64,000 nucleotides of DNA from an uncultured Acidimicrobiaceae bacterium (GTDB lineage Bacteria; Actinomycetota; Acidimicrobiia; Acidimicrobiales; RAAP-2): contig CAVTPF010000004.1 of the NCBI GenBank assembly GCA_963736525.1, forward strand, positions 44,989 to 108,988, given 5' to 3'. Positions 7,612 to 55,735 of this stretch are shown here, piece by piece. Under the pieces are notes generated by a model. That model was given only the letters and a program-made list of their open reading frames with translations. It was not told the origin of the DNA and searched no databases. The position numbers and the translations under genes were made by a program. Positions within the stretch are counted from its first letter, which is position 1. Each line of letters starts with the position of its first letter.

Positions 7612-7674
7612 GTCTCTCCCCTTGTGCTCTCACGCCACACCCGTTCTCATGGCCGCCTGACTCTGCACCACGGC

Positions 7675-9078: not shown

Positions 9079-9111
9079 GAGGATCCTTTCGGGGATGTGT
9101 CGATTCCGAAA

Positions 9112-9846: not shown

Positions 9847-9874
9847 GTACCGGTCCCTCGTTCCCCTCGGTCTC

Positions 9875-10363: not shown

Positions 10364-10390
10364 GGTGGCCTCCTGTAAGATCGATTTCAG

Positions 10391-10431
10391 TCGATGCATC
10401 GAGTATGGCTGATACATTGACAGGTGTCAAT
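10391..10431. promoter_or_regulatory. Candidate ArsR operator(s) in the divergent arsR/arsI gap
   Basis: Perfect palindrome TCGATGCATCGA at 10391-10402, and an inverted repeat ATTGACA-GG-TGTCAAT at 10416-10431. Confidence 0.35.
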
Positions 10432-10450
10432 GGGAAGGTGGTGACACCCT

Positions 10451-10798: not shown

Positions 10799-10870
10799 GC
10801 GGAAAGACGCTGCGGTACTGAGCCGGCATGGAGGGGCACCCGCTCCGTAAGGGCGGCGTGCCAACATGTC

Positions 10871-12048
10871 GTGGTGGCGGAGGAATCGGCCCCGGACCAT
10901 GGTCCGGACGTCACTCTCGGCACGATCGCAAAGGAGTGGGGCCGCATCGGCTGCACCGGCTTCGGCGGTCCCCCGACACACATCGCGATGCTGCGTCGGC
11001 TCACGGTGGAGCGGGAAGGCTGGCTGGGGGCGACCGAGTTCGAGGACGCCATCGCGGCGACGAACCTGCTCCCGGGCCCGGCGTCGACGCAGCTGGCGAT
11101 CTTCAGCGCCTGGCGGCTGAGGGGACTCCCGGGCGCCCTCGTCGGGGGTGCGTGCTTCATCTGCCCGGGGCTGGCGGTCATCATCGCCCTCGCCGCCCTC
11201 TTCCTGGCCTCCAACCCGCCCACCTGGATCAAAGGCGCCGCGCTGGGCGCCGGCGCTGCGGTGGCGCCGGTCGCCCTCAACGCGGCCATGGGCCTGATCC
11301 CCGCCAGCTGGCGCAGGGCCGGTTCCGCTCGGGCGCGCCAGGTGCGCTGGGTGGCCTACGCCGTCGTGGGCGCGGTGGCAGCCGCGACCGTCGGTACCTT
11401 CTTGGTCCTCGTGCTCCTCGGCTGCGGGCTGGTGGAGGTCGCATTCTCGGGGAGTGTGCGCCCGTTCGGGCACCCGAACGGCTTCGTCGTGGCGCCACTC
11501 GCCGTCGTGGCGACCGGCGGTCTGGGCGCGTTGACCTGGGTCGCGCTCAAGGTCGGCGCGCTCTCGTTCGGCGGCGGTTTCGTCATCATTCCGCTCATGC
11601 AGGCCGATGCCGTCCACCACTACCACTGGATGACGAACACGCAGTTCCTCAACGCGGTCGCGCTCGGACAGATCACCCCGGGACCGGTCGTGCAGACCGT
11701 CGCGGTCGTCGGCTACGCCGCCGCGGGCGTCGGGGCGCGCTGCTGGCGGCGCTGGTCGCCTTCTCGCCCTCGTTCGTCTTCATCCTCGCCGGGGGGCGGC
11801 ACTTCGGGGCGCTCCGCACCAACCGCATGGCACAGTCCTTCCTGGGCGGCGCGGGGCCGGCCGCCATCGGCGCCATTGCCGGCGCGTCCATCCCCCTGGC
11901 GCTCGGTATCGCCCACGTCTGGCAGGTGGTGATCCTCGCCGGCGCCCTGGTCGTGATCGTCGGGCTGCGGCGCAGCGTCGTGCTCACACTGGTCGGCGCC
12001 GGCGTGATCGGTGCGCTGGGTGCGGCGCTGGGGCTGCCGACCGGCTGA
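10871..12048 (+). pseudogene. chrA: Chromate transporter ChrA interrupted by a 1-nt frameshift (or a sequencing error)
   Basis: The first CHR half reads in frame 2 up to ...VVGYAAAGVG. The second half (GALLAALVAFSPSFVFILAGGRHFGALR...) continues in frame 1 to the stop at 12048. The switch maps to the G-run at 11732-11735. Confidence 0.7.
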
Positions 12049-14942: not shown

Positions 14943-15044
14943 GCGTCGATCGAACCCAGCGACAAGCCGGTCCGACGGACCGGACAGCGGATCACCGATC
15001 AGCATCACCAAAGCAAGCACAACCACCTCACAAGGAGAGAACCT

Positions 15045-16169
15045 GTGAAGACATTGATGGGCGCGGCACGACTGAAGCGGGGAGTAGTCATCACCGCGAT
15101 GGCGGGGCTGGCGCTGAGCTCGGTCGTCTTGGCGTCGGCCGCCTCGGCCAGCGTCAAGCTCCCCAGCAGCGGCGTGGAGACGCCGGGCGGCGGCACCGTG
15201 ACCGAGACCGGGAGCACGCTGCTGTACCCGCTCTTCAACCTGTGGGCCGGCGGCTACAACACGAAGTTCTCGAGCACCACCATCCAGACGGCAGGCACCG
15301 GATCGGGAACGGGAATCTCGGAGGCGGAGAACGGCACCATCGACATCGGCGCCTCCGACGCCTATCTGTCGCCGAGCGTCGTGTCGGCCAACCCCGACCT
15401 GAAGAACATCCCGACGGCGATCTCGGCCCAGATGGTGGCCTACAACGTCCCTGGCGTCACCGCTCACTTGAAGCTGAGCGGCAAGCTGATCTCGGAGATC
15501 TACCAGGGGCAGGTGACGAGTTGGAACGCCTCGGGGATCGCCAACGCGAACCCGGGCGTGACGTTGCCCAACCTCCCGATCGTCGCCCTGCACCGCTCGG
15601 ACAGCAGCGGAGACACGTTCATCTTCACCCAATACCTGTCGAAGGCTGACCCCTCGGGCTGGGGCACCAAGATCGGGTACAACACCACCGTCCCGTGGCC
15701 GGCCGCCCCCGGCGCGCTGGGCGAGAGCGGGAACTCGGGCATGGTGTCGGGCTGCAAGGCCACGCCGGGCTGCATCGCCTACATCGGGATCAGCTACCTG
15801 ACCCAGGTGTTGCAGGCCGGCCTGTCGTATGCCGAACTGGGCAACGGCCACGGGCAGTACGTGCTGCCGACGCAGGCGACCATCGCCGCCGAGGCGGCGG
15901 GCTTCGTGAACAAGACCCCGGCCAACGGCACGATCTCGCTGATCTACGGCAACATCAACAATGGCTACCCGATCGTCAACTACGAGTACGCCATCGTCTC
16001 GACCCACCAGTCGAGCTCCAGCACGGCCAAGAACATCCGGTCCGTGCTGGAGTGGGCGATCAACAAGAAGTACGGGAACAACACTTCTTATCTGTCGCAG
16101 GTCAACTTCCAGCCGCTGCCCTCCAAGGTCGTGGCACAGTCGGTGAAGCAGATCCTGAGCATCCAGTAG
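15045..16169 (+). CDS. pstS: Phosphate ABC transporter substrate-binding protein
   Basis: Signal peptide, then TGSTLLYPLFNLW, DIGASDAYLS and IVALHRSDSSGDTFIFTQYL (actinobacterial PstS anion-binding loops). Confidence 0.9.
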   Translation: MKTLMGAARLKRGVVITAMAGLALSSVVLASAASASVKLPSSGVETPGGGTVTETGSTLLYPLFNLWAGGYNTKFSSTTIQTAGTGSGTGISEAENGTIDIGASDAYLSPSVVSANPDLKNIPTAISAQMVAYNVPGVTAHLKLSGKLISEIYQGQVTSWNASGIANANPGVTLPNLPIVALHRSDSSGDTFIFTQYLSKADPSGWGTKIGYNTTVPWPAAPGALGESGNSGMVSGCKATPGCIAYIGISYLTQVLQAGLSYAELGNGHGQYVLPTQATIAAEAAGFVNKTPANGTISLIYGNINNGYPIVNYEYAIVSTHQSSSSTAKNIRSVLEWAINKKYGNNTSYLSQVNFQPLPSKVVAQSVKQILSIQ

Positions 16170-41610: not shown

Positions 41611-41811
41611 TCAGTTGTCGAAGACCCCGACCTGGGTCTTCCCGTGGAAGCCCTGGGGGGTGATGTACTCGAACTGGTCGATCCCGGCCGGCGGCACCAA
41701 GGAGGCGAAGAGCCAGGCGGGGAGCAAGCCGTTCTTGGTGTAGACGACGTTGTGACCCGTGGACACCCGTGGAGACACCGCGAGGCCGTTCGCCTCGGTC
41801 GACACGGTCAC
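41611..41811 (-). pseudogene. Decayed paralogue of the 49967..50488 lipoprotein gene
   Basis: It aligns to the 3' and central parts of 49967..50488, but lacks the signal/lipobox end (TGA just upstream in frame) and about 35 internal codons (...LPAWLFASLVPPAGIDQFEY versus ...LPAWLFAAKGEPITF...MTPPAGIGQFEY). Confidence 0.5.
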
Positions 41812-41914
41812 CGATTGTCCGTTGACGATGACGGTGCCCGACGCGAACGCGGGAGCCGTGGTGAGGCGGCCAGCGCGCCGATTTCAACAGCGAACATCAT
41901 GATTGGTATCGACC

Positions 41915-43063
41915 TCACAGGGTTGGGGGTAGCAAAAGGTACACATTTGAAAACCACTCGAGTGCCAGCGCGAGCACGATCGGCGTGCTGACGAGATACA
42001 CGGTCCAGATCTGCCGCGGTGCCCTGCGATACACGACGAAGGTCACGATGAGGGCGGCAGCAAAAACGAGGCCCCACAGCACCGACGGACCGATCGCAGA
42101 CGCGTCGCCCGCCAGCGCGCGCTGGGACGCGGGCGCGAGCGTCGTCGGGACCGGGGCATGCGCCGGTGCACTGGTCAGCTTCGCAATGACGTAGGCGCGT
42201 CCGGTGGGGATGAAGGGTGCATTGGCCGTGACCAGCGTGAGCCGCGCCGTCCTGGTGGGGCTGATCGGATCCACTTCACCAGCGGTCGCGGTGCCCACCT
42301 GTTCGACCTCGTAGCGAAACACGCCCAGGCCGGTCACGATCGTGATGGGATCACCGCGACGCAGGCTGAGGATGTGGGCGAACGGCGCACCGCTCGTGCT
42401 CCGACGACCCGCTATGACGGAGTTGCCCCTGGTCCCCGGCCGCGCCGTGCCCACCATGGCACCCGGGCCCTTTGCGGTGTCCGCGGCACTGGTCCCCTCG
42501 ACCACGACCTGCTTCAGGCCGATGCTCGGGATGAGCAGCACGGCCACCGGTTGCCCTTCGGGGGGCACGCGGCCGCTGTAGAGGGCCTGCGCTGACGGGG
42601 TCAGGAACTCGTTGAGCAGCGCGTGCTGCTCCCGCTGCTGCTGCAGGCCGGTGAACATGAACGCGTAGACGACGAAGAGCACGAGGCACGCGCCCACGGT
42701 CACGAAGCTCAGGGCCACGGCCAGCATCAGCCGGTCGGCTCGTTGCTCGGTGCTGGCGGCCGGCGCCGCGTCGGTGCGGATCGCCGTCTTGGCTCGATGA
42801 ATGACCGAGACCCTGTCGATCCCTTCGGGATCACGGAACGCCGGGACTGGCTCCGCGACGAGCGAGCGGGTGATGCGCCCCCCGGGCGCGTCCCCGTGGA
42901 GAACGCGCCGGGCCGCGCCACCCGAGCGGGTTCGCGTGCGTGGGTAACGCCCCTCCGTCGGGTCCGGGACGAAATACCTCCGCAGGCGGTGCAGTGAACC
43001 GCGACGTGGGGGCCAATCGCTCACCGGCGGTGCAGGGCGCGCCTTCTCGGCGACCGGCGTCAC
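41915..43063 (-). CDS. Class E sortase homologue with catalytic His and Cys replaced (pseudo-sortase)
   Basis: IPSIGLKQVVVEGT...KGPGAMVGTARPG..GNSVIAGRRSTSGAPF...RRGDPI...RLTLVTANAPF aligns with the class E pattern IP.LGL..VVVEGT..KGPGH..GTA.PG..GN..IAGHRTTYGAPF...LTL.TC. It has an N-terminal helix and two C-terminal helices. The start lies between 42727 (ATG) and 43063 (GTG). Confidence 0.65.
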   Translation of the reverse strand: MTPVAEKARPAPPVSDWPPRRGSLHRLRRYFVPDPTEGRYPRTRTRSGGAARRVLHGDAPGGRITRSLVAEPVPAFRDPEGIDRVSVIHRAKTAIRTDAAPAASTEQRADRLMLAVALSFVTVGACLVLFVVYAFMFTGLQQQREQHALLNEFLTPSAQALYSGRVPPEGQPVAVLLIPSIGLKQVVVEGTSAADTAKGPGAMVGTARPGTRGNSVIAGRRSTSGAPFAHILSLRRGDPITIVTGLGVFRYEVEQVGTATAGEVDPISPTRTARLTLVTANAPFIPTGRAYVIAKLTSAPAHAPVPTTLAPASQRALAGDASAIGPSVLWGLVFAAALIVTFVVYRRAPRQIWTVYLVSTPIVLALALEWFSNVYLLLPPTL

Positions 43064-43082
43064 GACAGGCGCACCGAGGAGC

Positions 43083-45560
43083 TCACACCGGGCCGGGGCG
43101 GGAGCGCGCCGCCCCCAACCATCCCGGTACCTTCTTGAGGCGGACGGCCACCTTGGCTGACCAGGCTCGGATCCGTGTGGACAGCGCATGGCCGGTGTCG
43201 AAGACGTGGCGGCGCAACCCGGCGCTGAGGAACAGCAGCGAACCCATGAGCAGCGCGAGGATCCCCAGGAGGATCACCACCGGGAGCAGGTTGGAGCTGG
43301 CGCTCGCCACCAGGGAGAGCGAGCTCAGTGATTGGTGATGGCCCGACGACGGGGAAGCCGAAGCCTGATGCGAATTCGTCGAGGGGACACCGCCTCCCGT
43401 CCCCTTGATCGTGCCCGGTGTCGTCGTCGTGTGCGACGGGGAGGCCGAGCCCGAAGGTGCGTTCGCACCAGCGCTCGCGGTCGCGGCACTGGCGGTTCCT
43501 CCCGGCTGCCCGTTGACCGGGGCAGGTCCAGCCGACCCGGCGGTGCCCGACCCCGAGGAGCCCGAGGAGCCCGAGGGCCCGGACGGTGCGGTCGTGGTCG
43601 TCGTCGGTGCACCCTCGTTGGCGAAATCGTTCGCAATGTCGTTCTGTGCCTGCTGGTAGAGCGCACTCGGTAGCGGCACGAAGCCGGCAGGCAGGTCCGG
43701 CGTGTCGGAGCCACCGGTCAGGTTCAAGACCTGGCTCAGCATGGCCTGGTCGGCGGCGGCCTGCGTCGCCGAGACACCCCGCGTGGGAACGACGGCATAC
43801 GTGATGGAGGGCATCGGGTAGGCGTTGGGATCGGTGGTCGTGTAGTTGGGAGTGAGCGAGCCGTCGGCGTTCTCGGTGGCGTCGCTCACCGCGGCGTCGA
43901 GCGACTGCTGCGTCGGTAGCACGAAGTTGCCGGATGGGTTCTGGAGGGCCGCCACGCTCATGCCGAAGTACTCGGCGTCCGCCCAGTCCATAGAGGCAAA
44001 TCCCGCATACGGTTCGGCCTGCTGCAGCGTCGGCTGTACAGCCGCGACGATCTTGAGCGCCTGTTGGGAGGGTCCTTGGTACGCTAAATAGGAGGTCAGC
44101 CCCTGTCGCACCGGGGGGAACTGCTCGTCGGTCGGACACGTCGCCAGCGGCTTGCCGGTCGGGTTCAAGCCGGACTGGAGAACCGCCGCCGCCGTTGATG
44201 GCTCGGAGAAGTTCGCCCCGACCGCCGACACGCTGACCACAGGAGCCTTGCACAGCCAAGCGAACAGTTGCCCCGTGGGACCGGCCGTGTCCGATCGCAC
44301 GTACCCGGCGAAGGACTGCGGCATGAGGAACGCGCTATCGAAGTTGACCTCGTTCATCAAGGAGCACTGCGTGATCGGCTTGTTCTTCTTCGTGGAGACC
44401 GGGCAGGGAGGCACCGTGCAGCCGCTGCTCTGGCACGCCACCACGTCGGACGTTGCGATGTTCTCGTAGTATCCGGTCAGCAAACCGGCCACCATGCGCG
44501 GGGTCAGGTCCATGGCGTCTAAGGGCACCAGCTGCTGGTGTGATGCCGTACGCTCCTCGGCGGTGAAGGAGACGACATTGGCGCTCAATGCGATCGGGAT
44601 GAGGGCGAAGTTGCCCATCTTGAGCTCTACCTGCTGGTCCGCCTGTTCGGGATCGTCGGTGAACGCCACGTCGATCAGACCCTGTTGCAGGGACGTGACC
44701 GCGCTGAGGCCGTCGATGGCCGTGTTGAAGGCGATCGTTGGGTCCGGTCCGCCGCATCCGATCCGGGCGGCCACCGGGAAGAGGATGTCAGATCCGAAGT
44801 CGCTCTGCGTGTTCACCGTGTTGGCCCCCGGGCATCCGCTTCCCGAGGCTAGGAAGCTGACGGGAACCACTGCAGTGGTCGAAGGCACCAGCGTGAGCGC
44901 GCCGCTGTTGGTGGGACCTGTGTCGGTGATGTCGACCGAGCATGGTGAGGCCGCGTTGCAGAAGAACGCGCCCGTGTCGGCGTTGTCTCCAGGTGCTGCG
45001 CCTGAGAGCGGCGTCGACGTGGAGTCCACCTCGAGAACCTGGAAGCTCACACTGGTCGCCCCGTTCGGGAAGGCTTCTGTCTGATAGTCCACTTCGGAAA
45101 CGCCCTGACCGCCGGTGTTCACACAGAGTTGGTCCGAGGGAAGCGGTGCCGTGTCGGAGCAGTAGTTGATCTGTGCGTAATCGCCCACGCCCGGCGTCGA
45201 GGTCCAGTCGTAGAGGTTGACGTAGACCCACTGGGCCGGTCCGAGGTCGCTCACCGGGCCCACCTGGTACGTCGGGCAGGTCGTTCCGCTCGGGCACGTG
45301 GCCGGGATGGTCCCGCAGGCGTCGCCGGTCGGGCAGGCCGGGGGGGCAAGCAGATCGTGTGACACCGAGAAGCTCGGGGTCACAGCCACCCCCGGCGCGG
45401 TCACCGCGGTGGTGGTCGTGCCGTGCGCCTTCGCGACGCTCCCGTGCGCCGGGGGGGAACCGGCAGCCCCGTGGCTCGAGGCCGCGGCCTGCGTCACGGG
45501 GATCACGAGGAGGAACAGGCCGGCCAGGAGCGCCGTGACGGCCTTCCTGCCACGCGTCAT
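43083..45560 (-). CDS. Large exported Cys-rich protein with a PstS-fold (type 2 PBP) domain, a Ser/Gly/Thr-rich stalk and a C-terminal membrane anchor
   Basis: The ATG at 45560 follows GGGGGAGG. Signal peptide MTRGRKAVTALLAGLFLLVIPVTQAAA and about 18 Cys. PBP-like blocks: FALIPIALSANVVSF, YVRSDTAGPTGQLFAWL, YPMPSITYAVVP and GFVPLPSALYQQAQNDI. The C-terminal helix is LLPVVILLGILALLMGSLLFLSAGLRRH. Confidence 0.65.
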   Translation of the reverse strand: MTRGRKAVTALLAGLFLLVIPVTQAAASSHGAAGSPPAHGSVAKAHGTTTTAVTAPGVAVTPSFSVSHDLLAPPACPTGDACGTIPATCPSGTTCPTYQVGPVSDLGPAQWVYVNLYDWTSTPGVGDYAQINYCSDTAPLPSDQLCVNTGGQGVSEVDYQTEAFPNGATSVSFQVLEVDSTSTPLSGAAPGDNADTGAFFCNAASPCSVDITDTGPTNSGALTLVPSTTAVVPVSFLASGSGCPGANTVNTQSDFGSDILFPVAARIGCGGPDPTIAFNTAIDGLSAVTSLQQGLIDVAFTDDPEQADQQVELKMGNFALIPIALSANVVSFTAEERTASHQQLVPLDAMDLTPRMVAGLLTGYYENIATSDVVACQSSGCTVPPCPVSTKKNKPITQCSLMNEVNFDSAFLMPQSFAGYVRSDTAGPTGQLFAWLCKAPVVSVSAVGANFSEPSTAAAVLQSGLNPTGKPLATCPTDEQFPPVRQGLTSYLAYQGPSQQALKIVAAVQPTLQQAEPYAGFASMDWADAEYFGMSVAALQNPSGNFVLPTQQSLDAAVSDATENADGSLTPNYTTTDPNAYPMPSITYAVVPTRGVSATQAAADQAMLSQVLNLTGGSDTPDLPAGFVPLPSALYQQAQNDIANDFANEGAPTTTTTAPSGPSGSSGSSGSGTAGSAGPAPVNGQPGGTASAATASAGANAPSGSASPSHTTTTPGTIKGTGGGVPSTNSHQASASPSSGHHQSLSSLSLVASASSNLLPVVILLGILALLMGSLLFLSAGLRRHVFDTGHALSTRIRAWSAKVAVRLKKVPGWLGAARSRPGPV
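44949..45027. repeat. 79-nt segment matching 50631..50709 with one mismatch
   Basis: Aligned by eye, with a single mismatch (gaacgcgcc versus gaacgtgcc). Confidence 0.85.
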
Positions 45561-45811
45561 GGTGCCTCCCCCGACCGCGGCTCGTCCGTGACGTCGCCGC
45601 GCCGGCGACGCGCGATCGCGACGGCCGGCGGCAGGGCCAGCAGAGCCAGGAGTCCGAACGCGGCCAGAAGAACATCGGCGTTGGGCCCGGGCGACTTCAA
45701 CAGGAAAGCAGTGGTGCGCTGCAGGGCGACGCCGGCAACCTGGCCCGGCGCCGCCGAAACCTCGTTGGCCGCCTTCTTGGCCGCCGCGGCCGCGGCGGCC
45801 TTGGCCTGTGC
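45535..45811. repeat. 277-nt segment about 97 percent identical to 50710..50987
   Basis: Aligned by eye, giving about 7 substitutions and one 1-nt indel. It covers the start of the large PBP gene and the anchor-coding 3' end of the upstream ORF. Confidence 0.85.
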
Positions 45812-46183
45812 CGGGCTCGTCGGCGACGTACTGCTGCTGCCGGCACACCGGGCGCCCCAGCTCTCGGCTCGGGCTCCACCGTGAGCAGGCGCAGCGGTCG
45901 CGAGTCCTCCGGCGACGCCCCCTGTGGTGGGGGCAAAGGTAGCGGCGCCGCCGGCCGATGGCGAAGCCGACGCGCTGCCGGTCACCGGCTGCTGGAGCGA
46001 CGCGCTGGCCGATGATGCAAGGGGCGTCGCGGTTGGACGCAGTCGGGGTCGGGCGGAGGTGAAGTCACTAACCGTCTGCGTGACCATGGGGAATGCCGGA
46101 TCAGACCGCGTGAGGCGGCTCCGCAGGCGTATCGGGGTGAAGCGAGAGTCCTGCGAGGGAATGTCGGGTGCCGAGGCTGTCAC
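45557..46183 (-). pseudogene. In-frame deletion chimera: pstC N-terminus fused to the stalk and anchor of the PstS-like anchored protein
   Basis: MTASAPDIPSQDSRFTPIRLRSRLTRSDPAF matches pstC2 MTVTTPDAPAESPRFTPIRLRSRLSRSDQVF. The C-terminus ...[74 protein letters not shown] matches the tail of 50733..52448. The GTG start is the same as in pstC2, and the stop overlaps the next start (ATGA). Confidence 0.5.
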
Positions 46184-46265
46184 TGAGGATCGCGCTCAAT
46201 TCCTTGAGGTCGGTGGTGACGCTGCAGCGTCGCGAGCGGGGCCGGCCGGGACGGTAGACCGAGAG

Positions 46266-46301
46266 CAACGGGGCCCAGCCCCGAAAGGCTGGACCCCGTT
46301 G
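46266..46301 (-). terminator. Strong stem-loop downstream of the 46363..48138 gene
   Basis: CAACGGGGCCCAGCC-ccgaaa-GGCTGGACCCCGTTG, a 15-bp stem with one mismatch. It lies 62 nt after the stop. Confidence 0.55.
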
Positions 46302-46362
46302 TGCCGCGTCTCTGTCTCGGAAGCCAAAACCTCAACGGATTCCGAGTGTGGATCCCTCTCGG

Positions 46363-48138
46363 TTACTGGTTGGCGTTCCCGTCCGTGGTGGAGACGGCGC
46401 AGTAACCCGGGGGGTTGGGCGCCGTCGGGATGGACGTGTTCACGCCACTCGGGCCAACCGCCGGGCCGCCCACGTCCAGGTAGGTGGCACCGCCAGCATC
46501 GCTCGCGAGGAGGCTGATGGCGGTGTGCCCGACGCTGCCTTCGGAAGCCGCGGCCCCCGTCGGGAAGCTCAGGTCGGCGTACGTGGGGCCGCTCGCGGTG
46601 GCGTCCAGCGGAATGAAGCCCTGCTGGAGGATCGTGTTCTCGATCTCGGTCGCGTACCAGATGCCGGTGGCCGGGTCGACGATCTCGTCGCTGGCCCCCG
46701 TCGGCGTCGCGTTGCCGCTGACCGTTTCGGGCTTGCAGACGAACCCGATCTCGCTGACGTAGTTCAGCGTTGCCGCGGTCGCCGGCGGAATGTTCGGGTT
46801 CGAGCCGTTCGAGTACACGTTGTACACGTCACGAGGATCCGGGAACGACCCGTTCAGGACGCTCTGCGGGGTGGGGGCGATGCCGTTGATCGAGCCGAGA
46901 ATAATCTTGCCGCTCGCGCCGGTCGTCGCCCCGCCTCCGCAATCGGCACCGACCTTGCTGTTCACCGTGCCGTCGAGACCTGGCAACACCGTCTTGTCGA
47001 ACGCCTCGGCCTTCAGCTTCTCGCCTCCGCACTGATCGGCGTACCTACCGAGCGAGTAGAACATGATGGCGTCTGCGTAGGTCGAGGGTTCGACGCTGGT
47101 CAGCTCGTTCTCCAAGATGGTATCCGGACCCGCGCAATTGGTGCCGGGACCGGCCGGGTAGACCGCGGGCTTACCCGACGGCGACGGCGTCGAGGCGCAG
47201 TTGACCGAGTTCGTGCTCGCCGTGGGGTCGAAGCCCATGAAGCTCTTCCACGTCGCCTGGGTGCCAGAGCCCTCCTGGGCCGCGTACACGATGATCGGAG
47301 CGGCCTTACCGCCGACCTGGGCCCAGTTGTAGATGGTCCCGTTCCAGATGCCCTGCAGTTGCGCCTGAGTCAGGCTGGACACCTTTGCCGAAGGCGTCGC
47401 TCCGGCCGAGGTCTTGGTCCAGTGGATCCACGACACACCGTCCGTCGCGTAGGCGACGAAGTTGAGGCCCTGGATGTCGGCGCTGCCGGGCTTCCGGGAT
47501 GACCGAGCGTAATCGATGTACGAGATGTTCTCGACAGAGTTGGCATCACCGATGCCGTTGCCTCCTGAGCCCGAGGCCTGGTTGTCCCGACCCTCCTCCA
47601 GCTGGGCGATGCCGTTCGACGACCCCATCGCTGACTGCGATACGGCGATGTCATTGACCGGGTTGTCGAGGTAGGCATTGTCCCCGCCGGCCGCGCCCAG
47701 GTCGGGTGGGATCTGCTCGCTCGTCACGCCCGCTGCACCGTAGAGGCCGCCGTCTGCCGACGGCACCGTCGTCCCGAGGCAGCTGTAGTTGAGCTCCTGT
47801 TGGGAGGCCGGAGCCACGTACGTAAACGAGGTCGTGGTGATGTTGCACCCCGGCGTGTGGTTGAAGAGGGAGTCCATCGCCTGCATCAAGGCGTAGGTTG
47901 TTTGCGAGCCGCTCCCGGTGATGATGTTGTTCTGCGGCTGTGCACCCGGGACCGAGTAGGTAGACCCGGTCTCGTCCGAATGGACCGTGGGGTTGACCGG
48001 CGGTGTGCTCGCGGCACCGGCCGTGCCAGCCCACGAGAGGCAAATGGCAGCTGCACTCGCCAGGGAGGCGCCCATCGCCAACCGGTGGCGACGCCTGCGC
48101 CCGGGTGGCACCCACGCACCTTTCAGTTCCTTTCGCAT
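46363..48138 (-). CDS. Oversized secreted PstS-family (PBP_like_2-type) substrate-binding-fold protein
   Basis: Signal peptide ...ASLASAAAICLSWAGTAGAAS. Blocks: ITGSGSQTTYALMQ, AMGSSNGIAQL, YARSSRKP and IIVYAAQEGSGTQATWKSF. It is 591 aa, against about 300-370 aa for ordinary PstS. AAGGAA lies upstream of the ATG. Confidence 0.7.
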   Translation of the reverse strand: MRKELKGAWVPPGRRRRHRLAMGASLASAAAICLSWAGTAGAASTPPVNPTVHSDETGSTYSVPGAQPQNNIITGSGSQTTYALMQAMDSLFNHTPGCNITTTSFTYVAPASQQELNYSCLGTTVPSADGGLYGAAGVTSEQIPPDLGAAGGDNAYLDNPVNDIAVSQSAMGSSNGIAQLEEGRDNQASGSGGNGIGDANSVENISYIDYARSSRKPGSADIQGLNFVAYATDGVSWIHWTKTSAGATPSAKVSSLTQAQLQGIWNGTIYNWAQVGGKAAPIIVYAAQEGSGTQATWKSFMGFDPTASTNSVNCASTPSPSGKPAVYPAGPGTNCAGPDTILENELTSVEPSTYADAIMFYSLGRYADQCGGEKLKAEAFDKTVLPGLDGTVNSKVGADCGGGATTGASGKIILGSINGIAPTPQSVLNGSFPDPRDVYNVYSNGSNPNIPPATAATLNYVSEIGFVCKPETVSGNATPTGASDEIVDPATGIWYATEIENTILQQGFIPLDATASGPTYADLSFPTGAAASEGSVGHTAISLLASDAGGATYLDVGGPAVGPSGVNTSIPTAPNPPGYCAVSTTDGNANQ

Positions 48139-48344
48139 GTACCCGTTTCCTTTCGCCCGGCGAGCCGGAGTCGGTTCTGCTCCAAGTGTTCTTTTCCGTT
48201 GCTCAGCGATACCGCTCGTGGTGACGCAACGAACCCGGAGACCCTTTGTGTCGCACGCCTGGCAAAAGAGGGAACGGCACCGCCGTCCCCTCGTTCACCC
48301 TCGCTCGTGGCCGGTATTGCCGGCGGTCGATTCGTCACCGGGGC

Positions 48345-48506
48345 GGACGTTAGGAGCCGAAAGTTAACGGATATCGACCAATACGCTACGGGAGATGAAT
48401 TCTTCAGTGACCCCGATGAAAGACAAGGTCACGGCCTTGCACGGCACAAGCGACCGGTTCCGCACACGAACGGAAGATGGCCGTTTGGTGACATCGTTCA
48501 CCCCGG
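48345..48506. promoter_or_regulatory. Conserved 162-nt non-coding module, copy A (paralogue of 55574..55735)
   Basis: Identical blocks are GGACGTTAGGAGCCGAAAGTTAACGGA (27 nt), GGAGATGAATTCTT and GGTGACATCGTTCACCC. On the minus strand the promoter-like geometry is TCACTG-16 nt-TAGCGT (48410-48383). Confidence 0.5.
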
Positions 48507-48571
48507 TAGCGACGTCGCTGCTTGCCGTAGCACCGTTCGTTGGACCCACCCCGATGCCGTCGGACGAAGAG

Positions 48572-48593
48572 GGCGGTGGGCGGACCCACCGCC
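48572..48593. other. Stable hairpin GGCGGTGGG-cgga-CCCACCGCC in an intergenic region
   Basis: A perfect 9-bp GC stem with a tetraloop, read directly from the sequence. Its function is unknown. Confidence 0.4.
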
Positions 48594-48624
48594 GGCGGGC
48601 AGAGATGCGGGTGCGTCGCGTCCC

Positions 48625-48646
48625 GTTCACCCGCATGTTTCACAAC
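48625..48646 (+). promoter_or_regulatory. PHO-box-like pair GTTCACCCGCA TGTTTCACAAC upstream of 48693
   Basis: The first unit matches 10 of 11 positions of G(G/T)TCAYYYR(G/C)G. It lies 47-68 nt before the GTG start. Confidence 0.3.
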
Positions 48647-48692
48647 TCAAAGCTGCGCCCTGGCACCGTGGAGTCACCGGTAGAGTGCTGCC

Positions 48693-49439
48693 GTGATCCG
48701 ATGCCTGCGCACCGCTAGCTGCCTCTCCGCTCTCGCCGTGTCCGTTCCCGTGGCCCTTTTAACCTCCGCATCTGTGGCCACCGCGACGCCGCCTTCCGCG
48801 ATCAAACTTCTGAGCCAGTCCGTCGAAGCAGCGAATTCCAAGGGGTCGCTGACCTTCTCGGACACCACGCGGAGCGGGAAGAACGTCGAGGTGCTCACCG
48901 GCGCGGTCAGTGCACCGACCGCCGCCGAGTCCCTGACCGAGACGGGACACGGCCCGTTGAACGTGTTGTTGATCGGCGACACTATCTACGTGCGCGGCGA
49001 CAGTGATGTGCTGCACGGGACGTTGGGTCTGCCACTCGCCGCCTCCACCGCCAACTCGGAGAAGTGGATCTCGGTTCAGTCGGGCGATAGTGCGTTCAGC
49101 CAGCTCGTCGCACCGCTCAACATGTCGACTGAGCTCAACAACTACGTCCCTGCCGGCCACCTCAAGAAAGGGAGGATCACCACGGTGGACGGCCACAAGG
49201 TGATCCCTCTGACGGGCGCCGCCTCGGCCTCGGCCGCCCAGGGTGGTGCCGGGGCTGTGGCCTTGTTCGTCTCCACCAATGCGCCGTATCTGCCGGTGGG
49301 AGGGACCCTCGTCGTCGTCAGGAGAGGCTCTCCCGGTCTCAGTGAGGTGGCGGCGTTTAGTGCTTGGGGGAGCAAGGTGGTCGCCAACGCGCCAACCGGT
49401 GCCATTCCCTTCTCGTCGCTCGTCTCGACCTCCGGCTGA
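48693..49439 (+). CDS. Secreted hypothetical protein (LolA/LppX-like guess)
   Basis: Signal peptide MIRCLRTASCLSALAVSVPVALLTSASVATA. No catalytic motif was recognised. A C-terminal remnant of a paralogue lies at 26895..26963. Confidence 0.5.
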   Translation: MIRCLRTASCLSALAVSVPVALLTSASVATATPPSAIKLLSQSVEAANSKGSLTFSDTTRSGKNVEVLTGAVSAPTAAESLTETGHGPLNVLLIGDTIYVRGDSDVLHGTLGLPLAASTANSEKWISVQSGDSAFSQLVAPLNMSTELNNYVPAGHLKKGRITTVDGHKVIPLTGAASASAAQGGAGAVALFVSTNAPYLPVGGTLVVVRRGSPGLSEVAAFSAWGSKVVANAPTGAIPFSSLVSTSG

Positions 49440-49486
49440 GGTCGCCCGCACGTCTGAGGGGACCAGGACACACCCTCCTTTGTTCA

Positions 49487-49711
49487 TCACCAGACGAGGG
49501 TGAAGTTGAATGCCGGCACAAAGTCTGTCGACCCGGCGTAGCTGACGGGCACAGTTGCGCTCGCACCCGTGATCCCAGACGACGCGTTGGCCGGGATGTC
49601 CGGTAGTCGTCCGCTCTCCGGCGGCGGGCCCGGCGGACCAGGCATTGTCGCTGGGGTTTCGTAAAGGGCCATTTGCCACGTCCGGAGCGCCGCATCAAGG
49701 GTACGGCTCAA
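49487..49711 (-). pseudogene. Probable 3' remnant of an Ig-like exoprotein gene (paralogue of 26986..28953)
   Basis: The C-terminus ...ASATVPVSYAGSTDFVPAFNFTLVW* compares with ...SAMVTISSAGSTDFAPATFTFTLDW*. Nucleotide similarity covers the first ~60-110 nt, and there is no Ig-repeat body upstream. Confidence 0.4.
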
Positions 49712-49966
49712 GGGCGCGACCCTGGCGGCAGCTCGCGTACTGGCGCGGCGCCATCATGATCCACCCGACCCTGCACCAGGTCTCGGCAGCCGTATGCGGG
49801 CGATGCGGGCCTTTCGTTCACAACGTGGTACGGCGACGCACGCACAGCGAAACTGTGCGAGTCTGCATACAGGAGAAGGGGGCCGAGGAGACGGGCTTCG
49901 CCGAGGTGGCGCGGGACGCCAGGCCGGACTCAGAGGTGAAGCGAAGCCGTCACGATGCGGACGCCG

Positions 49967-50488
49967 TCACTGGTCGAAGATCCCGACCTGAGCCTTGCCA
50001 TGAAATCCGGTCGACGTCCTGTACTCGAACTGCCCGATTCCCGCTGGCGGCGTCATGGTGTGCGACTGCCCGGGCTGAATGGTGAACGACGGCTGCATCA
50101 GCGGGATGAGCGTGATCGTCACCGGTGACGAAGCGAGGTTCGTAAAGGTGATCGGCTCGCCCTTCGCGGCGAAGAGCCACGCCGGCAGGAACCCCTTTGC
50201 CGTCCAGACGACGTTCTGGCCCGTGGCGAAATGCGACGAAATCGCCAGACCGTTCGCTTCGCGGGGCACGGTGACCGACTGGCCGTTGACCATGACTGTG
50301 GGAGTCGTGATTGCGGGCGCCAGCGTGGTACCCGGGGTCTGCCTGCTGGCGCTGGCGGTGGGGGACCCACCGCTGCTCCCACCACAGGCTGACGCGGTCA
50401 ACGCCAGCGCGACCACTGCACTGGCAACGGCCAGCCCTCGGGTGTTGACGGAGTACCGGCGTGCGGCCTTGGGGACGAGGGGTGTCAT
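49967..50488 (-). CDS. Lipoprotein with a cupredoxin-like C-terminal domain (copper ligands not evident)
   Basis: The ATG is at 50488 and the lipobox is LALTASAC. The pattern GEPITFTN....VTITL...FTIQPGQSHTMT.PAGIGQFEYRTSTGFHGKAQVG follows cupredoxin strand spacing, but there is no Cys or Met at the ligand positions. Confidence 0.55.
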   Translation of the reverse strand: MTPLVPKAARRYSVNTRGLAVASAVVALALTASACGGSSGGSPTASASRQTPGTTLAPAITTPTVMVNGQSVTVPREANGLAISSHFATGQNVVWTAKGFLPAWLFAAKGEPITFTNLASSPVTITLIPLMQPSFTIQPGQSHTMTPPAGIGQFEYRTSTGFHGKAQVGIFDQ

Positions 50489-50532
50489 GGTGACGTCGGA
50501 CCTCACAGAGTCGGGGGAGCAACAGGGACAGG

Positions 50533-50736
50533 TTGGAGAACTATTCGAGTGCCAGGGCAAGCACGATCGGAGCGCCGAGAAGATACACGGTCCAGATCTG
50601 TCGCGGTGCACGACGATGCGCCAGGAAGGTGGCCGCGTTGCAGAAGAACGTGCCCGTGTCGGCGTTGTCTCCAGGTGCTGCGCCTGAGAGCGGCGTCGAC
50701 GTGGAGTCCGTGACGGCCTTCCTGCCGCAGCGTCAT
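50533..50736 (-). pseudogene. Composite remnant: large-PBP gene start plus a 79-nt internal piece plus the sortase-homologue 3' end
   Basis: 50710-50736 matches the start region of 43083..45560, with a frameshifting indel. 50631-50709 matches 44949-45027. 50541-50632 matches 41950-42045 at about 80 percent identity and encodes ...RRAPRQIWTVYLLGAPIVLALALE*. Confidence 0.55.
50631..50709. repeat. Partner of repeat 44949..45027
   Basis: See 44949..45027. Confidence 0.85.
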
Positions 50737-50987
50737 GGTGCGTTCCCCGACCGCGGCTCGTCCGTGACGTCGCCGCGCCGGCGACGCGCGATCGCGACGG
50801 CCGGCGGCAGGGCCAGCAGAGCCAGGAATCCCAGCGCGGCCAGAAGAACATCGGCGTTGGGCCCGGGCGACTTCAACAGGGAAGCAGTGGTGCGCTGCAG
50901 GGCGACGCCGGCAACCTGGCCCGGCGCCGCCGAAACCTCGTTGGCCGCCTTCTTGGCCGCCGCGGCCGCGGCGGCCTTGGCCTGTGC
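50710..50987. repeat. Partner of repeat 45535..45811
   Basis: See 45535..45811. Confidence 0.85.
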
Positions 50988-52448
50988 GGCGGCCTGGGCT
51001 GCCGCCTGCGCCGAGCTGGCCGACGTGCCGCTGGTGGAGGTCTTGCCACCCGCCGACGACGCCGACCCCGGTCCGTTGACCGTGGCGGGACCACCGTGTG
51101 CCGCGGCCGGGCCCGCTGCGGCCGTCCCCGCGGTGGCGGTGGCGGTGGCGGCCCCGCCCGATGACGGGGTTGCGGGCGCGCTCCCGATCACGGGCTCGCC
51201 CTGCAGAGGCAGCTGCCCATCAACGTACGGGTTCGGGCAATTCGACGCATTCGGGGCCGGGAGGGCGGTACCGGTGATGCGTTGCACCGCGTCGAAGTCT
51301 GCCTGGACCAGGTTCGGCGGCAGGGGCGAGTATCCCAGCGCACCGGCCGACTGTTGGCCCCGGCAGGCCACGAACTGGACGAACTGACCCTCCTCGGCCT
51401 GCTTGTCAGACGATATCTCGCTCTGCTCGGCCATGATGAGGTAGCTGTAGGCCGAGATGGAGTAGGCCGTCGGCTGCGTCGACTCGAAGACGGGGACCAG
51501 GTTCTGCTCGAGGTCCGGCTGCAGCGCGTCGGATTCCAACGCGACGGCGTCGGCCGTTTCGGAGGGCTGGACGTACGCCCCGCTGGCGTTCTGTACCGCC
51601 GCGCACGGGTCGTGGTGCAGGATCGCGTAGGCCGTCTCGACGTACGTGATGGAACCCGGGTTGCCGTAGACGTAGTTGGACGCGTTGTCAGACCCGGACT
51701 CGCCGCTCCAGTTGCCGAAGTTGTAGGGGCCCACCGTGCGCTGTCCCCCCTGCGGGATCGGCCAGATGGCCTGCGCCCCGGGCGGCGACTGCACGGCACT
51801 GGTGAAGGCCGACCACGCGGACCCCTGCAGGGTCGAAAGGTAGTCCGAGAAGATGTAGTTGTCGCCCGACGCATCCGTTCGGTAAACGACGACGATGGGT
51901 GTGTTCGGCAGCTGCACGCCCGGATTGAGTGCGGCGATGGCCGGGTCGTTCCACTTCGTGATGGTGCCGCTGAACATGCCGACCATGACGCTGGAGTTGA
52001 GCTTGAGCGACGTGATCTGGTTGCCCAGATTGTCCTGGAGGTTGTACATGAGGCAGGTCGCGCCCGCAACGTCGGGCAGGTACTGGTAGCTGAACCCCGC
52101 TGCCGGCTCCTGGTTCGCCTGCCCGGTGCTGTAGCCGATTTCGCTCGCACCGAAGTCGACCAGCGGGTACTGGGCGAAGTTGTTGAGACCGATCACCGAC
52201 GACGTCGTCGCGTAGTTGATGTTGTCGCCGTAGAGGCTCTGCACCTGCGAGGCCCACTGGTTAATGGCGACGGCGGCATAGCTCGAACCGGTCCCGGAGA
52301 TCGTGGGACCCGACGCGCCGGCGACCTGCGGACGCGTGACGAGCAGACCGCAGGCCGCGGCCAGGCATGCCATTATGCAGGCGATTCGGCTCGCCGCCGC
52401 GGGCACCCGCCTCCTGGTCGGGGTTTCAGCCAAAACGGCCATGGACAT
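50733..52448 (-). CDS. PstS-like phosphate-binding-fold protein with an Ala-rich stalk and a C-terminal membrane anchor
   Basis: The start at 52448 or 52442 overlaps the pstB2 3' end. The signal is [37 protein letters not shown]. The blocks [25 protein letters not shown] and [19 protein letters not shown] mirror PstS1. The tail is [37 protein letters not shown]. Confidence 0.75.
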
Positions 52449-53265
52449 AGTCAGACGTCCTCGGGTCGACGGGTTGGGCGAAGATCTGGGTCGTCGGTCC
52501 CGACTCGACGATCCGCCCCGGCGTGTTCTCCTCGGCGAGGAAGAAGGCGCACGAGTGCGAGACGCGCTGGGCCTGCTGCATGTTGTGGGTGACGATGACG
52601 ACCGTGACATCCTCGGCGATCTCGTCGATCGTCTGCTCGATGCGGTTGGTCGACGCCGGGTCGAGCGCCGAGCACGGCTCGTCCATCAACAGGACCTTGG
52701 GGCGTACGGCGAGGGCCCGGGCGATGCAGAGGCGCTGCTGCTGGCCGCCCGAGAGCGCTCCCCCAAGGTCACGGAGCCTGTTCTTGACCTCGCTCCACAG
52801 TCCCGCCCGGGTGAGGGAGTACTCCACCAGGTCGTCCTTGTCGTGGATCCTCGTTCTCGTGAAGCGCAGGCCCGACAGCACGTTGTCGCGGACCGACATG
52901 GCCGGGAACGGGTTGGGGCGCTGGAACACCATGCCGATCTGGCGCCGCACCTCATTGGCCCGTTGGGTCGCTCCGTAGATGTCCTCGCCGTCGAGTTCCA
53001 CGGAGCCCGCCAGCTGTGCGCCGGGAACGACCTCGTGCATACGGTTGAGGATACGCAGGAAGGTCGACTTCCCACATCCCGAGGGTCCGATGAGAGCCGT
53101 GACCTGGGAGCGCTCCATGTCAAGGTTGACGTCCTCGAGCACGCAGCGGCTGCCGAACCACGCGCACACACCGCGCGCCACGAGCTCACCCGCCTGCGGG
53201 GCCGCGGTCGCAGCCCCGTTTTTGCTCGCCTCGTGCACGGCCGGGGTCGGCTGGGTCGTCGTCAT
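52426..53265 (-). CDS. pstB: Phosphate ABC transporter ATP-binding protein (second copy)
   Basis: [36 protein letters not shown] and [11 protein letters not shown]. The ATGA overlaps the pstA2 stop. Confidence 0.9.
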
Positions 53266-54494
53266 GGCGAGTCCCCTCTCGGGCGCATGACTCCCGAGGC
53301 ACCACGCACGGCCGCGCCCGCCGCGCCTTTCATGGCGGCGTTCGCCTCCCTCGCGTTACGGCGTCCCCGGATCTTGTTCCCGAGCCACGTGCTGCCCAGG
53401 ACCCGGGCCAGGATGAAGATGATGAAGACCATGATGAAGAGCACAAGGGCCGCCGTGTAGCCCAGCTGGATGTCCGCCGCCTGCGACGATCGTACCTCCG
53501 TGTAGGCCAGCAGCGATAGAGCCGACTGGGGCCCGCTGAACGGGTTGGCGTTCATCAGCTTGTTGCCGAAGATGGTGAGGATCAACGGCGCCGTCTCGCC
53601 GAGTGCCACGGCCACGCTGATGAGGACGGCCGTGATCAGGCCCGACTGGGCGGTGGGGAGGACGACGGACCAGACGGTCCGCCACTGCGGCGCGGCCAGC
53701 GCGGCGGACGCCTCCCGCAGGTCGTCCGGCACGATTTTCAGCACTTCCTCGGTGCCCCGGGTCACCGTGGGCAGCAACAGGACGGCCAGGGCCAGCGCCC
53801 CGGCGAAGCCCGAGTAACCGAAATGGAGCGTCTCGATCAGGAGGGAGTAGACGAAGGCACCGGCGACGATGGCCGGGACGCCGCTCATCGCAGTGACGAT
53901 GATCCGGACCCAGCGCGTCATGCGGCCCCCGACCTCGTTTAGGTAGACAGCGGTGAGCACCCCCGCCGGAACGCCCATCATGGCGGCCAGCCCGATCTGC
54001 TCCAACGTGCCGACGATGGCGTGGGCCACCCCCGGCTTCGGGCACGGCTCACCCGGGACGCACAGCTCGAGCACGCCCTTCTGCGTGGCGAAGAGGAGAT
54101 GGATGGACAAGAGCTGCCAGCCCTTGATGAAGAGGAACACCACGAGCAGGACCAGGGGGGCGAACATGCACAACGCCCCGAGCGTGACCAGCGCGGCTAC
54201 CGTGCGGTCCGTGGCGACACGGCGCCCGTAGACCTGCGTGTTCACGGCCCAGTACATGGCCAGGAAGAGGACGAACCAGCAGATGACGAATCCGGTCGGT
54301 CCCGAGAGGAACGTCAGCTGCTCGAAGAGGATCCAGACCGTGGCGAGCGACGAGGCGATGGAGACGGCGAGCACACCCAGTTCGCCGGGCTGCATCTCCC
54401 TCGGCCGGCGCGGCACCTTGCTGCGGGGCCGCGGGTACGTGGGCGTCGGTCGCGGCGGTGGCGCCAGGACGGGTCGCTGATCGGTGAGGGCCAT
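53262..54494 (-). CDS. pstA: Phosphate ABC transporter permease (second copy) with a Pro-rich N-terminal extension
   Basis: The ATG at 54494 overlaps the pstC2 stop (TGATG). It has the [15 protein letters not shown] loop and six helices. Confidence 0.85.
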
Positions 54495-55495
54495 CAGTGC
54501 GCCTTGGACCGGCTGACGATGACGGACGCGATGAAATTCACCGTCAGGGTGAACACGAAGAGCACGAGTCCGCACGCCAGCAGCGCCGAGAGGCCGAGCT
54601 TCCCACCGGACCCGAACCGGTTGGCGATCAGCGCGGCGATGGAGTTGCCGCCGGACTGAAAGATTTGTTCGGAAATCCCGTAGTTGAGACTCAGGATGAT
54701 GGAGACCGCCACGGCCTCGCCGAGGGCGCGGCCCAGGCCCAGCATGATGGCCCCGATGGTCCCGCCGAACCCGAACGGGAGCACGACGTCGCGCACGACG
54801 CGGGCGCGGGTGGCTCCGAGTGCCATGGCGCCCTCGCGCTCACCGACGGGCGTCAACGAGTAGATCTCGCGGGTGATCGACGTGACGATGGGCATGATCA
54901 TGATCCCGACCAGCACCCCGGCTATGAAGTACGAGGACGTGAAGACCACCGTCCCGTTGGCGACGTGGAAGATGGGAATGAAGCCGAGGTGCACCGTCAA
55001 GAACTTCGCGATGTCCTTGAGCCGCGGTTGGAGGAAGAAGAAGCCCCAAAGGCCGTAGATGACGCTGGGTACGGCGGCCATGAGGTCGACCATGGACGTG
55101 AGAAATCCCTTGAGTGGGAAGAAGCCCAGGAAGCTGCGCGGCGCGTACTCGTTGATGAACAGCGCGGATCCGATCGACACCGGCACCGCCACCACGACGG
55201 CGATCAGGGCGATGACGACCGATCCGTACAAGGCGGATTCGACGCCGAACTGGGGATGGGCGCCGGTGGTGACGAAGCCCGTCGTCGTGAAGAACTTCCA
55301 GCCGGCGGCGCGCAGGGCCGGCAAGGCCTGAAGGAAGAGGAAGAGCCCGATCAGGATCAGGACGAGGAAGGTGAAGCCGCCTGCGGCCTTGGTGACGAGC
55401 CTGAAGACCTGATCGGACCGGGAGAGCCGGCTGCGCAGCCGGATCGGGGTGAAGCGGGGGCTCTCGGCGGGAGCGTCAGGTGTGGTGACTGTCAC
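54494..55495 (-). CDS. pstC: Phosphate ABC transporter permease (second copy)
   Basis: GTG start. It has the EGAMALGATRARV EAA loop and a PstC-like helix pattern. Confidence 0.85.
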   Translation of the reverse strand: MTVTTPDAPAESPRFTPIRLRSRLSRSDQVFRLVTKAAGGFTFLVLILIGLFLFLQALPALRAAGWKFFTTTGFVTTGAHPQFGVESALYGSVVIALIAVVVAVPVSIGSALFINEYAPRSFLGFFPLKGFLTSMVDLMAAVPSVIYGLWGFFFLQPRLKDIAKFLTVHLGFIPIFHVANGTVVFTSSYFIAGVLVGIMIMPIVTSITREIYSLTPVGEREGAMALGATRARVVRDVVLPFGFGGTIGAIMLGLGRALGEAVAVSIILSLNYGISEQIFQSGGNSIAALIANRFGSGGKLGLSALLACGLVLFVFTLTVNFIASVIVSRSKAH

Positions 55496-55573
55496 TGAAG
55501 AGCACTTTCATGTTCCCTCTGAGTTGTCAGTGCTGCCGCCCTGATCCGCCGAGAACGCTCAGCCCCGGTCGCC

Positions 55574-55735
55574 GGACGTTAGGAGCCGAAAGTTAACGGA
55601 GTTCGACTAACACGCTACTGGAGATGAATTCTTGAGTAACCCTTGCTATTCCCGAGGTCACTGACTTTCCGCGCCAATGAGCCTGTCACGCCACGCGAAC
55701 AGAAGATGACAACGAGGTGACATCGTTCACCCTCG
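55574..55735. promoter_or_regulatory. Conserved 162-nt non-coding module, copy B (paralogue of 48345..48506)
   Basis: It has the same three identical blocks as copy A. The minus-strand geometry is TTACTC-16 nt-TAGCGT (55629-55602). It sits between divergent pstC2 and the Wzy-GT gene. Confidence 0.5.

Follow-up and report, generated by a model that had tools for sequence, protein, structure and literature searches.

A sortase-type C-terminal tail of PstS-like proteins in Acidimicrobiia, most likely a family-specific membrane anchor paired with a sortase-fold pseudoenzyme

The C-terminal tail of a PstS-like substrate-binding protein from an Acidimicrobiales genome is most likely a sortase-type signal that has turned into a family-specific membrane anchor and is paired with a sortase-fold pseudoenzyme. 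This conclusion was reached by sequence analysis of a window of 64,000 nucleotides of high-GC (~69%) DNA from contig C4 of genome G000, which is 4.56 Mb in size and 94% complete. The relatives of the source genome are MAGs from soil and peat samples. An earlier note on this DNA had described the tail as resembling a sorting signal without LPXTG, present in two nearly identical copies.

The tail is located at the end of an open frame at 50733-52610 (−). The likely start, MSMAVL at 52448, gives a gene at 50733..52448 (−) encoding a protein of 571 aa, an assignment which relies on the open frame, on PF12849 and on orthologues, namely P0002, P0003 and the protein of G024 (L013), the last being 56% identical. 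Four parts can be distinguished in the protein: a putative signal peptide (residues ~1-45), a PBP domain (~46-440), a stalk (~440-523) and the tail (524-571). The PBP_like_2 family (PF12849) was matched above its cut-off (E 3e-24, 86.5 bits, cut-off 27), and the score against the PstS equivalog TIGR00975, 197.6 bits, was just under the cut-off of 205. The gene is placed directly after pstC-pstA-pstB, with the PstCAB permease encoded upstream. The putative signal peptide, recognized by eye, has an RRR n-region and a hydrophobic stretch of 16 residues and ends in VAGA/SGP before SGTGSS, the conserved start of the PBP domain. It contains a Cys (LAAAC), and no canonical lipobox is found in the orthologues (VAIC, TATC). 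The translation of 50880..51131 (−) gives a low-complexity stalk of ~85 residues, rich in Ala, Gly, Ser, Thr and Pro and including an Ala-rich run of 26 residues, which precedes the tail and is similar in composition in every orthologue. Modelling with AlphaFold2 from a 6-row alignment gave a mean pLDDT of 31 and a pTM of 0.25, at which nothing beyond the helices of the signal peptide, the stalk and the tail (residues 532-559) is even suggestive. Overall, the architecture appears to be that of a binding protein anchored by a C-terminal helix: it comprises a putative signal peptide, a binding domain predicted to lie outside, a linker and a helix with a positive, presumably cytoplasmic side, and it lacks a lipobox. 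The same window also contains another PstS gene, at ~14943-16166 (+) (G000:C4:59931-61154). This one is canonical and lacks both stalk and tail, and its product is 27-29% identical to the anchored protein.

The tail itself (50736-50879, −) consists of a membrane-adjacent motif of 11 residues containing LLKSPGP (50847..50879), a hydrophobic helix of 20 residues (50787..50846) with a Pro ~5 residues before the basic cluster, and a predicted cytoplasmic part (50736..50786) made up of RRRR (50775-50786) and an acidic end of 13 residues. These features follow from the translation and, for the motif and the helix, also from the alignment. The positive-inside rule places such a basic cluster on the cytoplasmic side of the membrane. 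The translation of 50733-50879 (−) agrees letter for letter with the one on which the three-part layout lacking LPXTG or LAXTG had originally been proposed. We did not find a pentapeptide with a Thr-Gly (or Thr-Ala) scissile bond in the tail, and a regex scan did not pick the tail up. As in sorting signals, a helix of 15-25 residues lies within ~10 residues of the motif and is followed by basic residues. None of the NCBIfam sorting-signal models matched the tail significantly, the scores for CoaP_CTERM and Heimdall-CTERM being 13.1 bits each (cut-offs 35 and 24, respectively).

A C-terminal hydrophobic stretch followed by basic residues occurs in 126 ORFs of G000, mostly as the last helix of multi-pass membrane proteins. 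The tail could accordingly be regarded as a generic anchor, a helix with a positive-inside pattern that has no functional or historical link with sortases, its proximity to a sortase homologue (see below) being due to inheritance in one operon. This explanation, which we consider rather unlikely, draws on the abundance of such ends in G000, on the finding of this particular tail nowhere else in that genome, and on the occurrence of binding proteins with such an anchor in archaea and in some Gram-positive bacteria. However, it is only the layout that is common; the particular sequence of the tail is conserved throughout the class and was met on PstS-like proteins only.

Both properties can be seen from database searches. 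A profile HMM built from 21 tails, as well as BLAST, found in G000 two copies only (E ~1e-13), the next best match having an E of 0.12, so the idea of a sorting signal spread over the host proteome was not borne out. When the tail region was used for a word-based search of 5.8 billion proteins, the output consisted of the query protein and two of its orthologues. A profile of the tail matched 36 of 1.84 billion representative proteins at E <= 1e-3, mostly contig-end fragments, and every match reaching far enough upstream proved to be a PstS-like C-terminus (…LGYSPxPxNLVQA…, a Cys-containing segment, stalk and tail). The tail is thus no proteome-wide sorting signal shared among different proteins in the way LPXTG and PEP-CTERM signals are. 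An exosortase-type signal is likewise not indicated, as PF09721 (exosortase/archaeosortase) had no match in G000 at its 94% completeness and there is no cargo set sharing the tail. A regex scan of G000 for LPXTG or LAXTG substrates revealed none that was convincing, the best being LAVTG in an ORF of 445 aa. The LPXTG anchor model TIGR01167 gave sub-threshold matches only in G000, a result which is uninformative because the control was matched in all 14 genomes.

Tails of 21 orthologues from across the class can be aligned, and all 21 have one Pro in the helix ~5 residues before the basic cluster. The majority (type I) read …T-L-x-x-S-S-G-W-(S/G)-x-(T/A)-Q-T-L, with a helix ending in …(L/V)-P-(G/A)-L-(L/V) and followed by (W/S)RR. 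Type II tails, those of the clade to which the window belongs, have …LLG(W/V/I)(S/P)xP…, a helix ending in …(A/I)(L/V)PP… and then RRRR; the LLKSPGP form of this motif is found in the window and in the two relatives nearest to it. The motif of 11 residues occupies the site of S-S-G-W-x3-Q-T-L in type I tails, or of LGxTG/LAxTG in relatives with an active sortase (see below), but it is ambiguous which residues of LLKSPGP correspond to those of SSGW or LGxTG, since LLKSPGP was placed differently in two MAFFT alignments. The conservation of the tail is notable because the PstS cores of the two types are only 34-37% identical, and the persistence of both the motif and the helix Pro over such distances speaks against a generic anchor. 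The earlier note had allowed for a tail that occurs nowhere else and is simply such an anchor; the 21 aligned tails with their motif and invariant Pro, tied to a dead sortase as described below, indicate instead that the tail is a conserved C-terminal part of one PstS-like subfamily.

The sortase homologue of the window is encoded at 41915..43063 (−). It matches PF04203 with an E of 3e-19 and the class E model with 93.8 bits, under the cut-off of 160, and has one N-terminal and two C-terminal helices. It is a catalytically dead class-E-like paralogue: the catalytic His is replaced by Arg and the Cys by Ala, and the Arg is kept. The relevant segments read AGRR and LVTAN, versus AGHR and LTTCN in the only other sortase-family gene of G000, an intact class E sortase gene at G000:C16:328090-328776 with no obvious substrate beside it. 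We surveyed sortases in 301 sampled genomes of the class and cut out 20 further loci. In the dead-sortase clade both His (to Arg or Lys) and Cys (to Ala, Ser or Gly) are replaced at 28 loci out of 28, all of them in pst clusters, and a large subclade has also lost the catalytic Arg. The pairing of the tail with a catalytically altered sortase homologue, as originally suggested, is thus seen well beyond the window. Since the nucleophile is missing, cleavage of the tail by the neighbouring sortase is unlikely.

At every pseudo-sortase locus with a readable PstS-like gene the tail is present. When a 6-row tail profile was run against the 301 genomes, 13 were matched, G000 included, and 10 of the 12 others have a dead sortase; since this profile is weak and misses many tails visible by eye, these counts are lower bounds. 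The expected correlation of the tail with the sortase homologue was thereby recovered. Seven of the matches lie 3-7 kb from the dead sortase gene, and the matches in the other two genomes are the weakest. Five genomes had no sortase-family match at E<=1e-30, and in four of these the PstS subfamily is missing as well. Such strict co-occurrence with a dead sortase also argues against an anchor that has nothing to do with sortases. As far as the literature is concerned, searches for pseudo-sortases, Cys-less sortases and PstS proteins with sortase or LAXTG yielded no description of pst-linked dead sortases or of such tails.

Several further features of these sortase loci were recorded. Both dead and intact class E sortases of the class have an LPXT-like peptide as their extreme C-terminal end, after the last helix (41915-41935 (−) in the window; L013-L072 elsewhere). 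It is LLPPTL in the window, and LLPATL/V, LLPNLL, LLPANY and LLPASF were also seen. Judging from the number of helices this end should be extracellular, and it could fold back into the substrate groove of the same protein. In the type I clusters, one or two proteins with a canonical LP(F/S/V/Y/R/T)TG or LAFTG are encoded directly upstream of the dead sortase; canonical-signal genes of this kind were found in L021 (7124-9581), L022 (7154-9725), L056, L058, L059, L061, L063, L067, L068, L071 and L072. Many of these LPxTG/LAFTG proteins have a conserved Arg within the helix (…VFGRMAILLGRPxKV). As true signals persist there beside a dead sortase, the loss of the pentapeptide from the PstS tail is not a simple result of sortase death. 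The arrangement recurs in Yinghuangia seranimata (L020, NZ_JASAOI010000098.1), in which positions 7416-11686 encode first a helix-tailed large PBP, next a dead sortase that has Lys in place of His, Ala in place of Cys and LLPATV as its C-terminus, and finally pstB. This cultured species of Streptomycetales could serve as an experimental host for work on the dead-sortase family.

A different situation was found in three genomes of one genus (g82), at the loci L066 (8101-12927), L069 (8052-12963) and L070 (5969-11883), where a sortase with intact His, Cys and Arg follows pstCAB and two PstS genes. One of these PstS proteins has the C-terminus …PGPLG(T/R/H)TG-SDAIQLVPLGLSLVGIGEWVRRRK, that is, LGTTG, LGRTG or LGHTG followed by a helix and RRR. 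The other ends in …L-A-(Y/F/L)-T-G-GPD…WLRRR (LAYTG, LAFTG or LALTG). Judging by their sequence, both ends are textbook signals of the class E type, and the PstS proteins in these loci would be dedicated substrates of the sortase. A literature search for PstS with sortase or LAXTG returned no description of an operon-encoded active sortase with PstS substrates. The same genomes also have a separate housekeeping sortase by the cytochrome-c maturation genes. The LGxTG protein is 35% identical to the protein of the window (184 bits), as are type I tailed PstS proteins, while the canonical PstS reaches 27% and 85 bits; the LGxTG protein therefore belongs to the same subfamily. Comparison by eye further revealed a common spacing, G-x4-Q-(L/T), in the LGxTG signal and the type I tail.

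Because members of this PstS subfamily have genuine LGxTG or LAxTG signals in lineages with an active sortase, the resemblance of the tail to a sorting signal probably reflects descent, and a class-E-type (LAxTG or LGxTG) sorting signal is its most likely ancestor. The presence of these pentapeptides at the same position, together with the shared G-x4-Q spacing (noted by eye), is also difficult to reconcile with a generic anchor. In the unrooted sortase tree the active and the dead sortases fall on two sides of a fully supported branch, and one loss of activity would be compatible with this topology. However, the pst-linked active sortases group with the housekeeping ones and are not shown as sisters of the dead clade. 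This grouping suggests that they were perhaps recruited independently; it weakens the argument for descent and is a point in favour of the generic anchor.

It could also be supposed that the tail is still cleaved, with LLKSPGP (SSGW in relatives) being recognized by an intact class E sortase or by some other protease, so that the PstS-like protein would become linked to the wall or be released. The three-part layout, the conserved membrane-adjacent motif and the true LAxTG/LGxTG signals carried by the same subfamily elsewhere would all fit such processing, and the intact sortase encoded on C16 of G000 could in principle process something. Nevertheless, we hold this to be distinctly improbable. 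The tail lacks the Thr-Gly scissile pair and is matched by none of the known sorting-signal models, it is carried by one protein family and not by a set of substrates, and the neighbouring sortase has neither nucleophile nor general base in any of the 28 clade members. Moreover, the helix is conserved, including its invariant Pro, which would be needless in a discarded propeptide. Thus, from the sorting-signal interpretation put forward initially, the layout, the conservation and the linkage with an altered sortase were upheld, and sharing of the signal among different proteins was not.

The second copy of the tail owes its existence to a rearrangement of the locus, which is a tandem duplication with complementary deletions. 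The pst/PBP module at 41611-55735 has been duplicated in tandem, and the full gene set is obtained only when both copies are combined, with patches of 98-99% identity at the junctions. Copy A (~55.5-49.9 kb) retains pstCAB, the gene of the PstS-like protein and that of a small protein, whereas little remains of the genes of the large PBP and the sortase. What is left of them is a fused deletion remnant at 50513..50732 (−), comprising the start of the large-PBP gene, a 79-nt internal piece (50631-50709) and the 3′ end of the dead sortase gene (50513-50630) with an in-frame stop. Copy B (~48.1-41.6 kb) retains PBP591, the large PBP and the dead sortase, and its pstC-to-PstS part is reduced to a chimeric ORF at 45557..46183 (−). 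This ORF codes for 208 aa, namely ~40 pstC-like N-terminal residues, stalk and tail; its best BLAST match is pstC, it has no signal peptide, and its TGA overlaps the ATG of the large-PBP gene. The undisturbed order in G024 (L013) and G233 (L054) is PBP591, pstC, pstA, pstB, tailed PstS, tailed large PBP, dead sortase and small lipoprotein. In four genus-level relatives (L014, L015, L016 and L017), represented by assemblies with few contigs and low completeness, PstS, pstA, pstB, pstC and PBP591 are split over several frames. The broken PstS genes were considered as pseudogenes, but the splitting of the other four genes in the same assemblies makes indels of long-read assembly the likelier cause.

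Translation of 45557-45703 (−) confirmed that the copy B tail (45560-45703, −) differs from that of copy A by three residues (L to F, F to L and N to E), in accordance with the original description. Also correct was the statement that the tail lies in the best-conserved patch of the duplication, which had been put at about 97% identity against about 75-80% elsewhere. We found 98% over 258 nt between 45554-45811 and 50730-50987, and 99% between 44949-45027 and 50631-50709, with 71-80% for the remaining shared pieces, including the 3′ end of the sortase gene and the gene of the small protein. In copy A the patch (50730..50987, −) takes in the final part of the stalk, the tail with its stop codon, and the ATGA at which the large-PBP gene, otherwise deleted here, overlaps with its start; through this overlap the start of the large-PBP gene is coupled to the stop codon before it. 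Over the 84 codons shared by the two copies there are no synonymous and four non-synonymous differences. The neighbouring small protein has eight synonymous and nine non-synonymous differences in 29 codons. Had the copies diverged long ago under purifying selection, synonymous differences would have accumulated; therefore the patch was copied recently, probably by gene conversion. The near-identity of the two tails is real but does not speak for selection on the tail, which was rejected as its cause on these counts.

Such data raise the question whether the tail is only debris of the rearrangement, its identity reflecting a recent duplication. The absence of synonymous changes among the four differences in 84 codons would be expected in that case, and copy B is indeed a truncated chimera without signal peptide within a mosaic of complementary deletions. 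For the tail as such, however, the explanation is scarcely credible, as it holds for copy B only. The tail of copy A ends an intact gene of 571 aa and has the residues of the orthologues (L and F) at two of the four differing sites, where it is copy B that has changed. In addition, the tail is conserved in P0002, P0003 and G024 and class-wide, which already refutes the explanation as regards copy A.

The large PBP-like protein encoded next to the chimeric ORF (43083..45560, −; 825 aa, with a partial match to TIGR00975 at E 1.6e-12) also has a hydrophobic end. Translation revealed a helix of its own (…SNLLPVVILLGILALLMGSLLFLSAGLRR…), LSAGLRR and a basic tail of ~45 aa, just as had been noted before. 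We considered this end as a second carrier of the PstS tail signal and rejected it, as it aligns instead with the tails of large-PBP orthologues (…SRFFIPG-helix-LSPSLR or …SRY-AVPGL…-EITKRPRR). The large-PBP tail is thus a member of another sequence family than the PstS tail.

Taken together, the data make it rather probable that the tail serves as a stop-transfer membrane anchor which is not cleaved off, has its origin in a class-E-type signal and is perhaps docked by the pseudo-sortase. The PstS-like protein would be exported by means of its N-terminal signal peptide until the 20-residue helix stops transfer, so that RRRR and the acidic end would remain in the cytoplasm and the binding domain would be held outside the membrane by the stalk of ~85 residues, beside PstCAB. 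The helix and the basic cluster would have been retained from the ancestral signal, while the pentapeptide would have given way to a different conserved motif, namely SSGW-x3-QTL in the majority of lineages, and LLG[WVI]SP or LLKSPGP in the clade of the window. Anchoring by itself would not require the motif and the helix Pro to be conserved to such an extent, and we therefore infer that the tail may also contact a specific partner at the membrane surface. A membrane-anchored sortase domain normally engages the C-terminal signal region of its substrate, which makes the pseudo-sortase the obvious and most plausible candidate; it would bind the tail without cutting it.

A bolder version, conceivable if somewhat doubtful, is that a non-catalytic sorting system recognizes the tail as its signal. 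In this case a sortase devoid of its chemistry would have kept the peptide-binding groove, would capture several Pst-associated binding proteins by their C-terminal signals and would hold them, uncleaved, in a complex with PstCAB at the membrane. Besides the PstS-like protein, its cargo might include the large PBP and also, in type I clusters, an LPxTG protein. If so, the system would be a sortase-derived assembly scaffold and not a transpeptidase.

Under the favoured reading, that of an uncleaved anchor derived from a sorting signal, one PstS subfamily shows two states of a third way of tethering, besides the lipid anchor and the rare sortase attachment: a true LAxTG/LGxTG signal with an active sortase in some Acidimicrobiia, and an altered but conserved tail with a dead one in many others. 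It would offer a natural series for following the fate of a sorting signal after the death of its enzyme, and for learning whether sortase-fold pseudoenzymes retain a binding role. There are consequences for annotation too: the tailed PstS-like proteins escape pipelines that look for LPXTG, and the gene next to them is labelled as an active "class E sortase". In Actinomycetota of soil and peat, the capture of phosphate may depend on this module of tailed PstS and pseudo-sortase.

Gram-positive bacteria tether the binding proteins of ABC importers by a lipid anchor or, rarely, by sortase attachment. The protein shares with canonical PstS (TIGR00975) the PBP_like_2 signature and the position directly after pstC-pstA-pstB; it differs in scoring below the equivalog cut-off (197.6 vs 205), in having a stalk and tail of ~130 extra residues, and in being 27% identical to the tail-less PstS of its own genome. 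PEP-CTERM and PGF-CTERM signals likewise combine a short Pro/Gly motif with a helix and an Arg cluster at the very end of the protein, but for the present tail no exosortase gene was found in G000, no model matched, and only one carrier protein exists instead of a cargo family. In archaea, binding proteins of oligopeptide-type ABC importers are anchored by a C-terminal transmembrane helix. They resemble our protein in having a secreted domain, a flexible linker rich in Ser, Thr and Ala, and a single C-terminal helix that replaces the N-terminal lipid anchor. Many of these archaeal proteins proved to be archaeosortase (PGF-CTERM) substrates, whereas no exosortase or archaeosortase was detected in G000 at 94% completeness; we know of no pairing of archaeal C-terminal anchors with a sortase-fold pseudoenzyme.

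The closest parallel is with the class E sorting signals, consisting of LAxTG, a hydrophobic segment and a basic tail, as described for the substrates of SrtE1 and SrtE2 of Streptomyces coelicolor (PMC5148588); LAXTG is the motif predicted for this species (PMC5882110). In contrast to these signals, the tail contains no LAxTG, LPxTG or Thr-Gly and its cognate sortase has neither Cys nor His; it is found on one protein family, and conservation extends to the helix, with its invariant Pro. In common with them, the protein has a putative signal peptide, a low-complexity stalk, a motif directly before a segment of ~20 residues and a terminal Arg cluster, and it is adjoined by a class-E-like sortase homologue.
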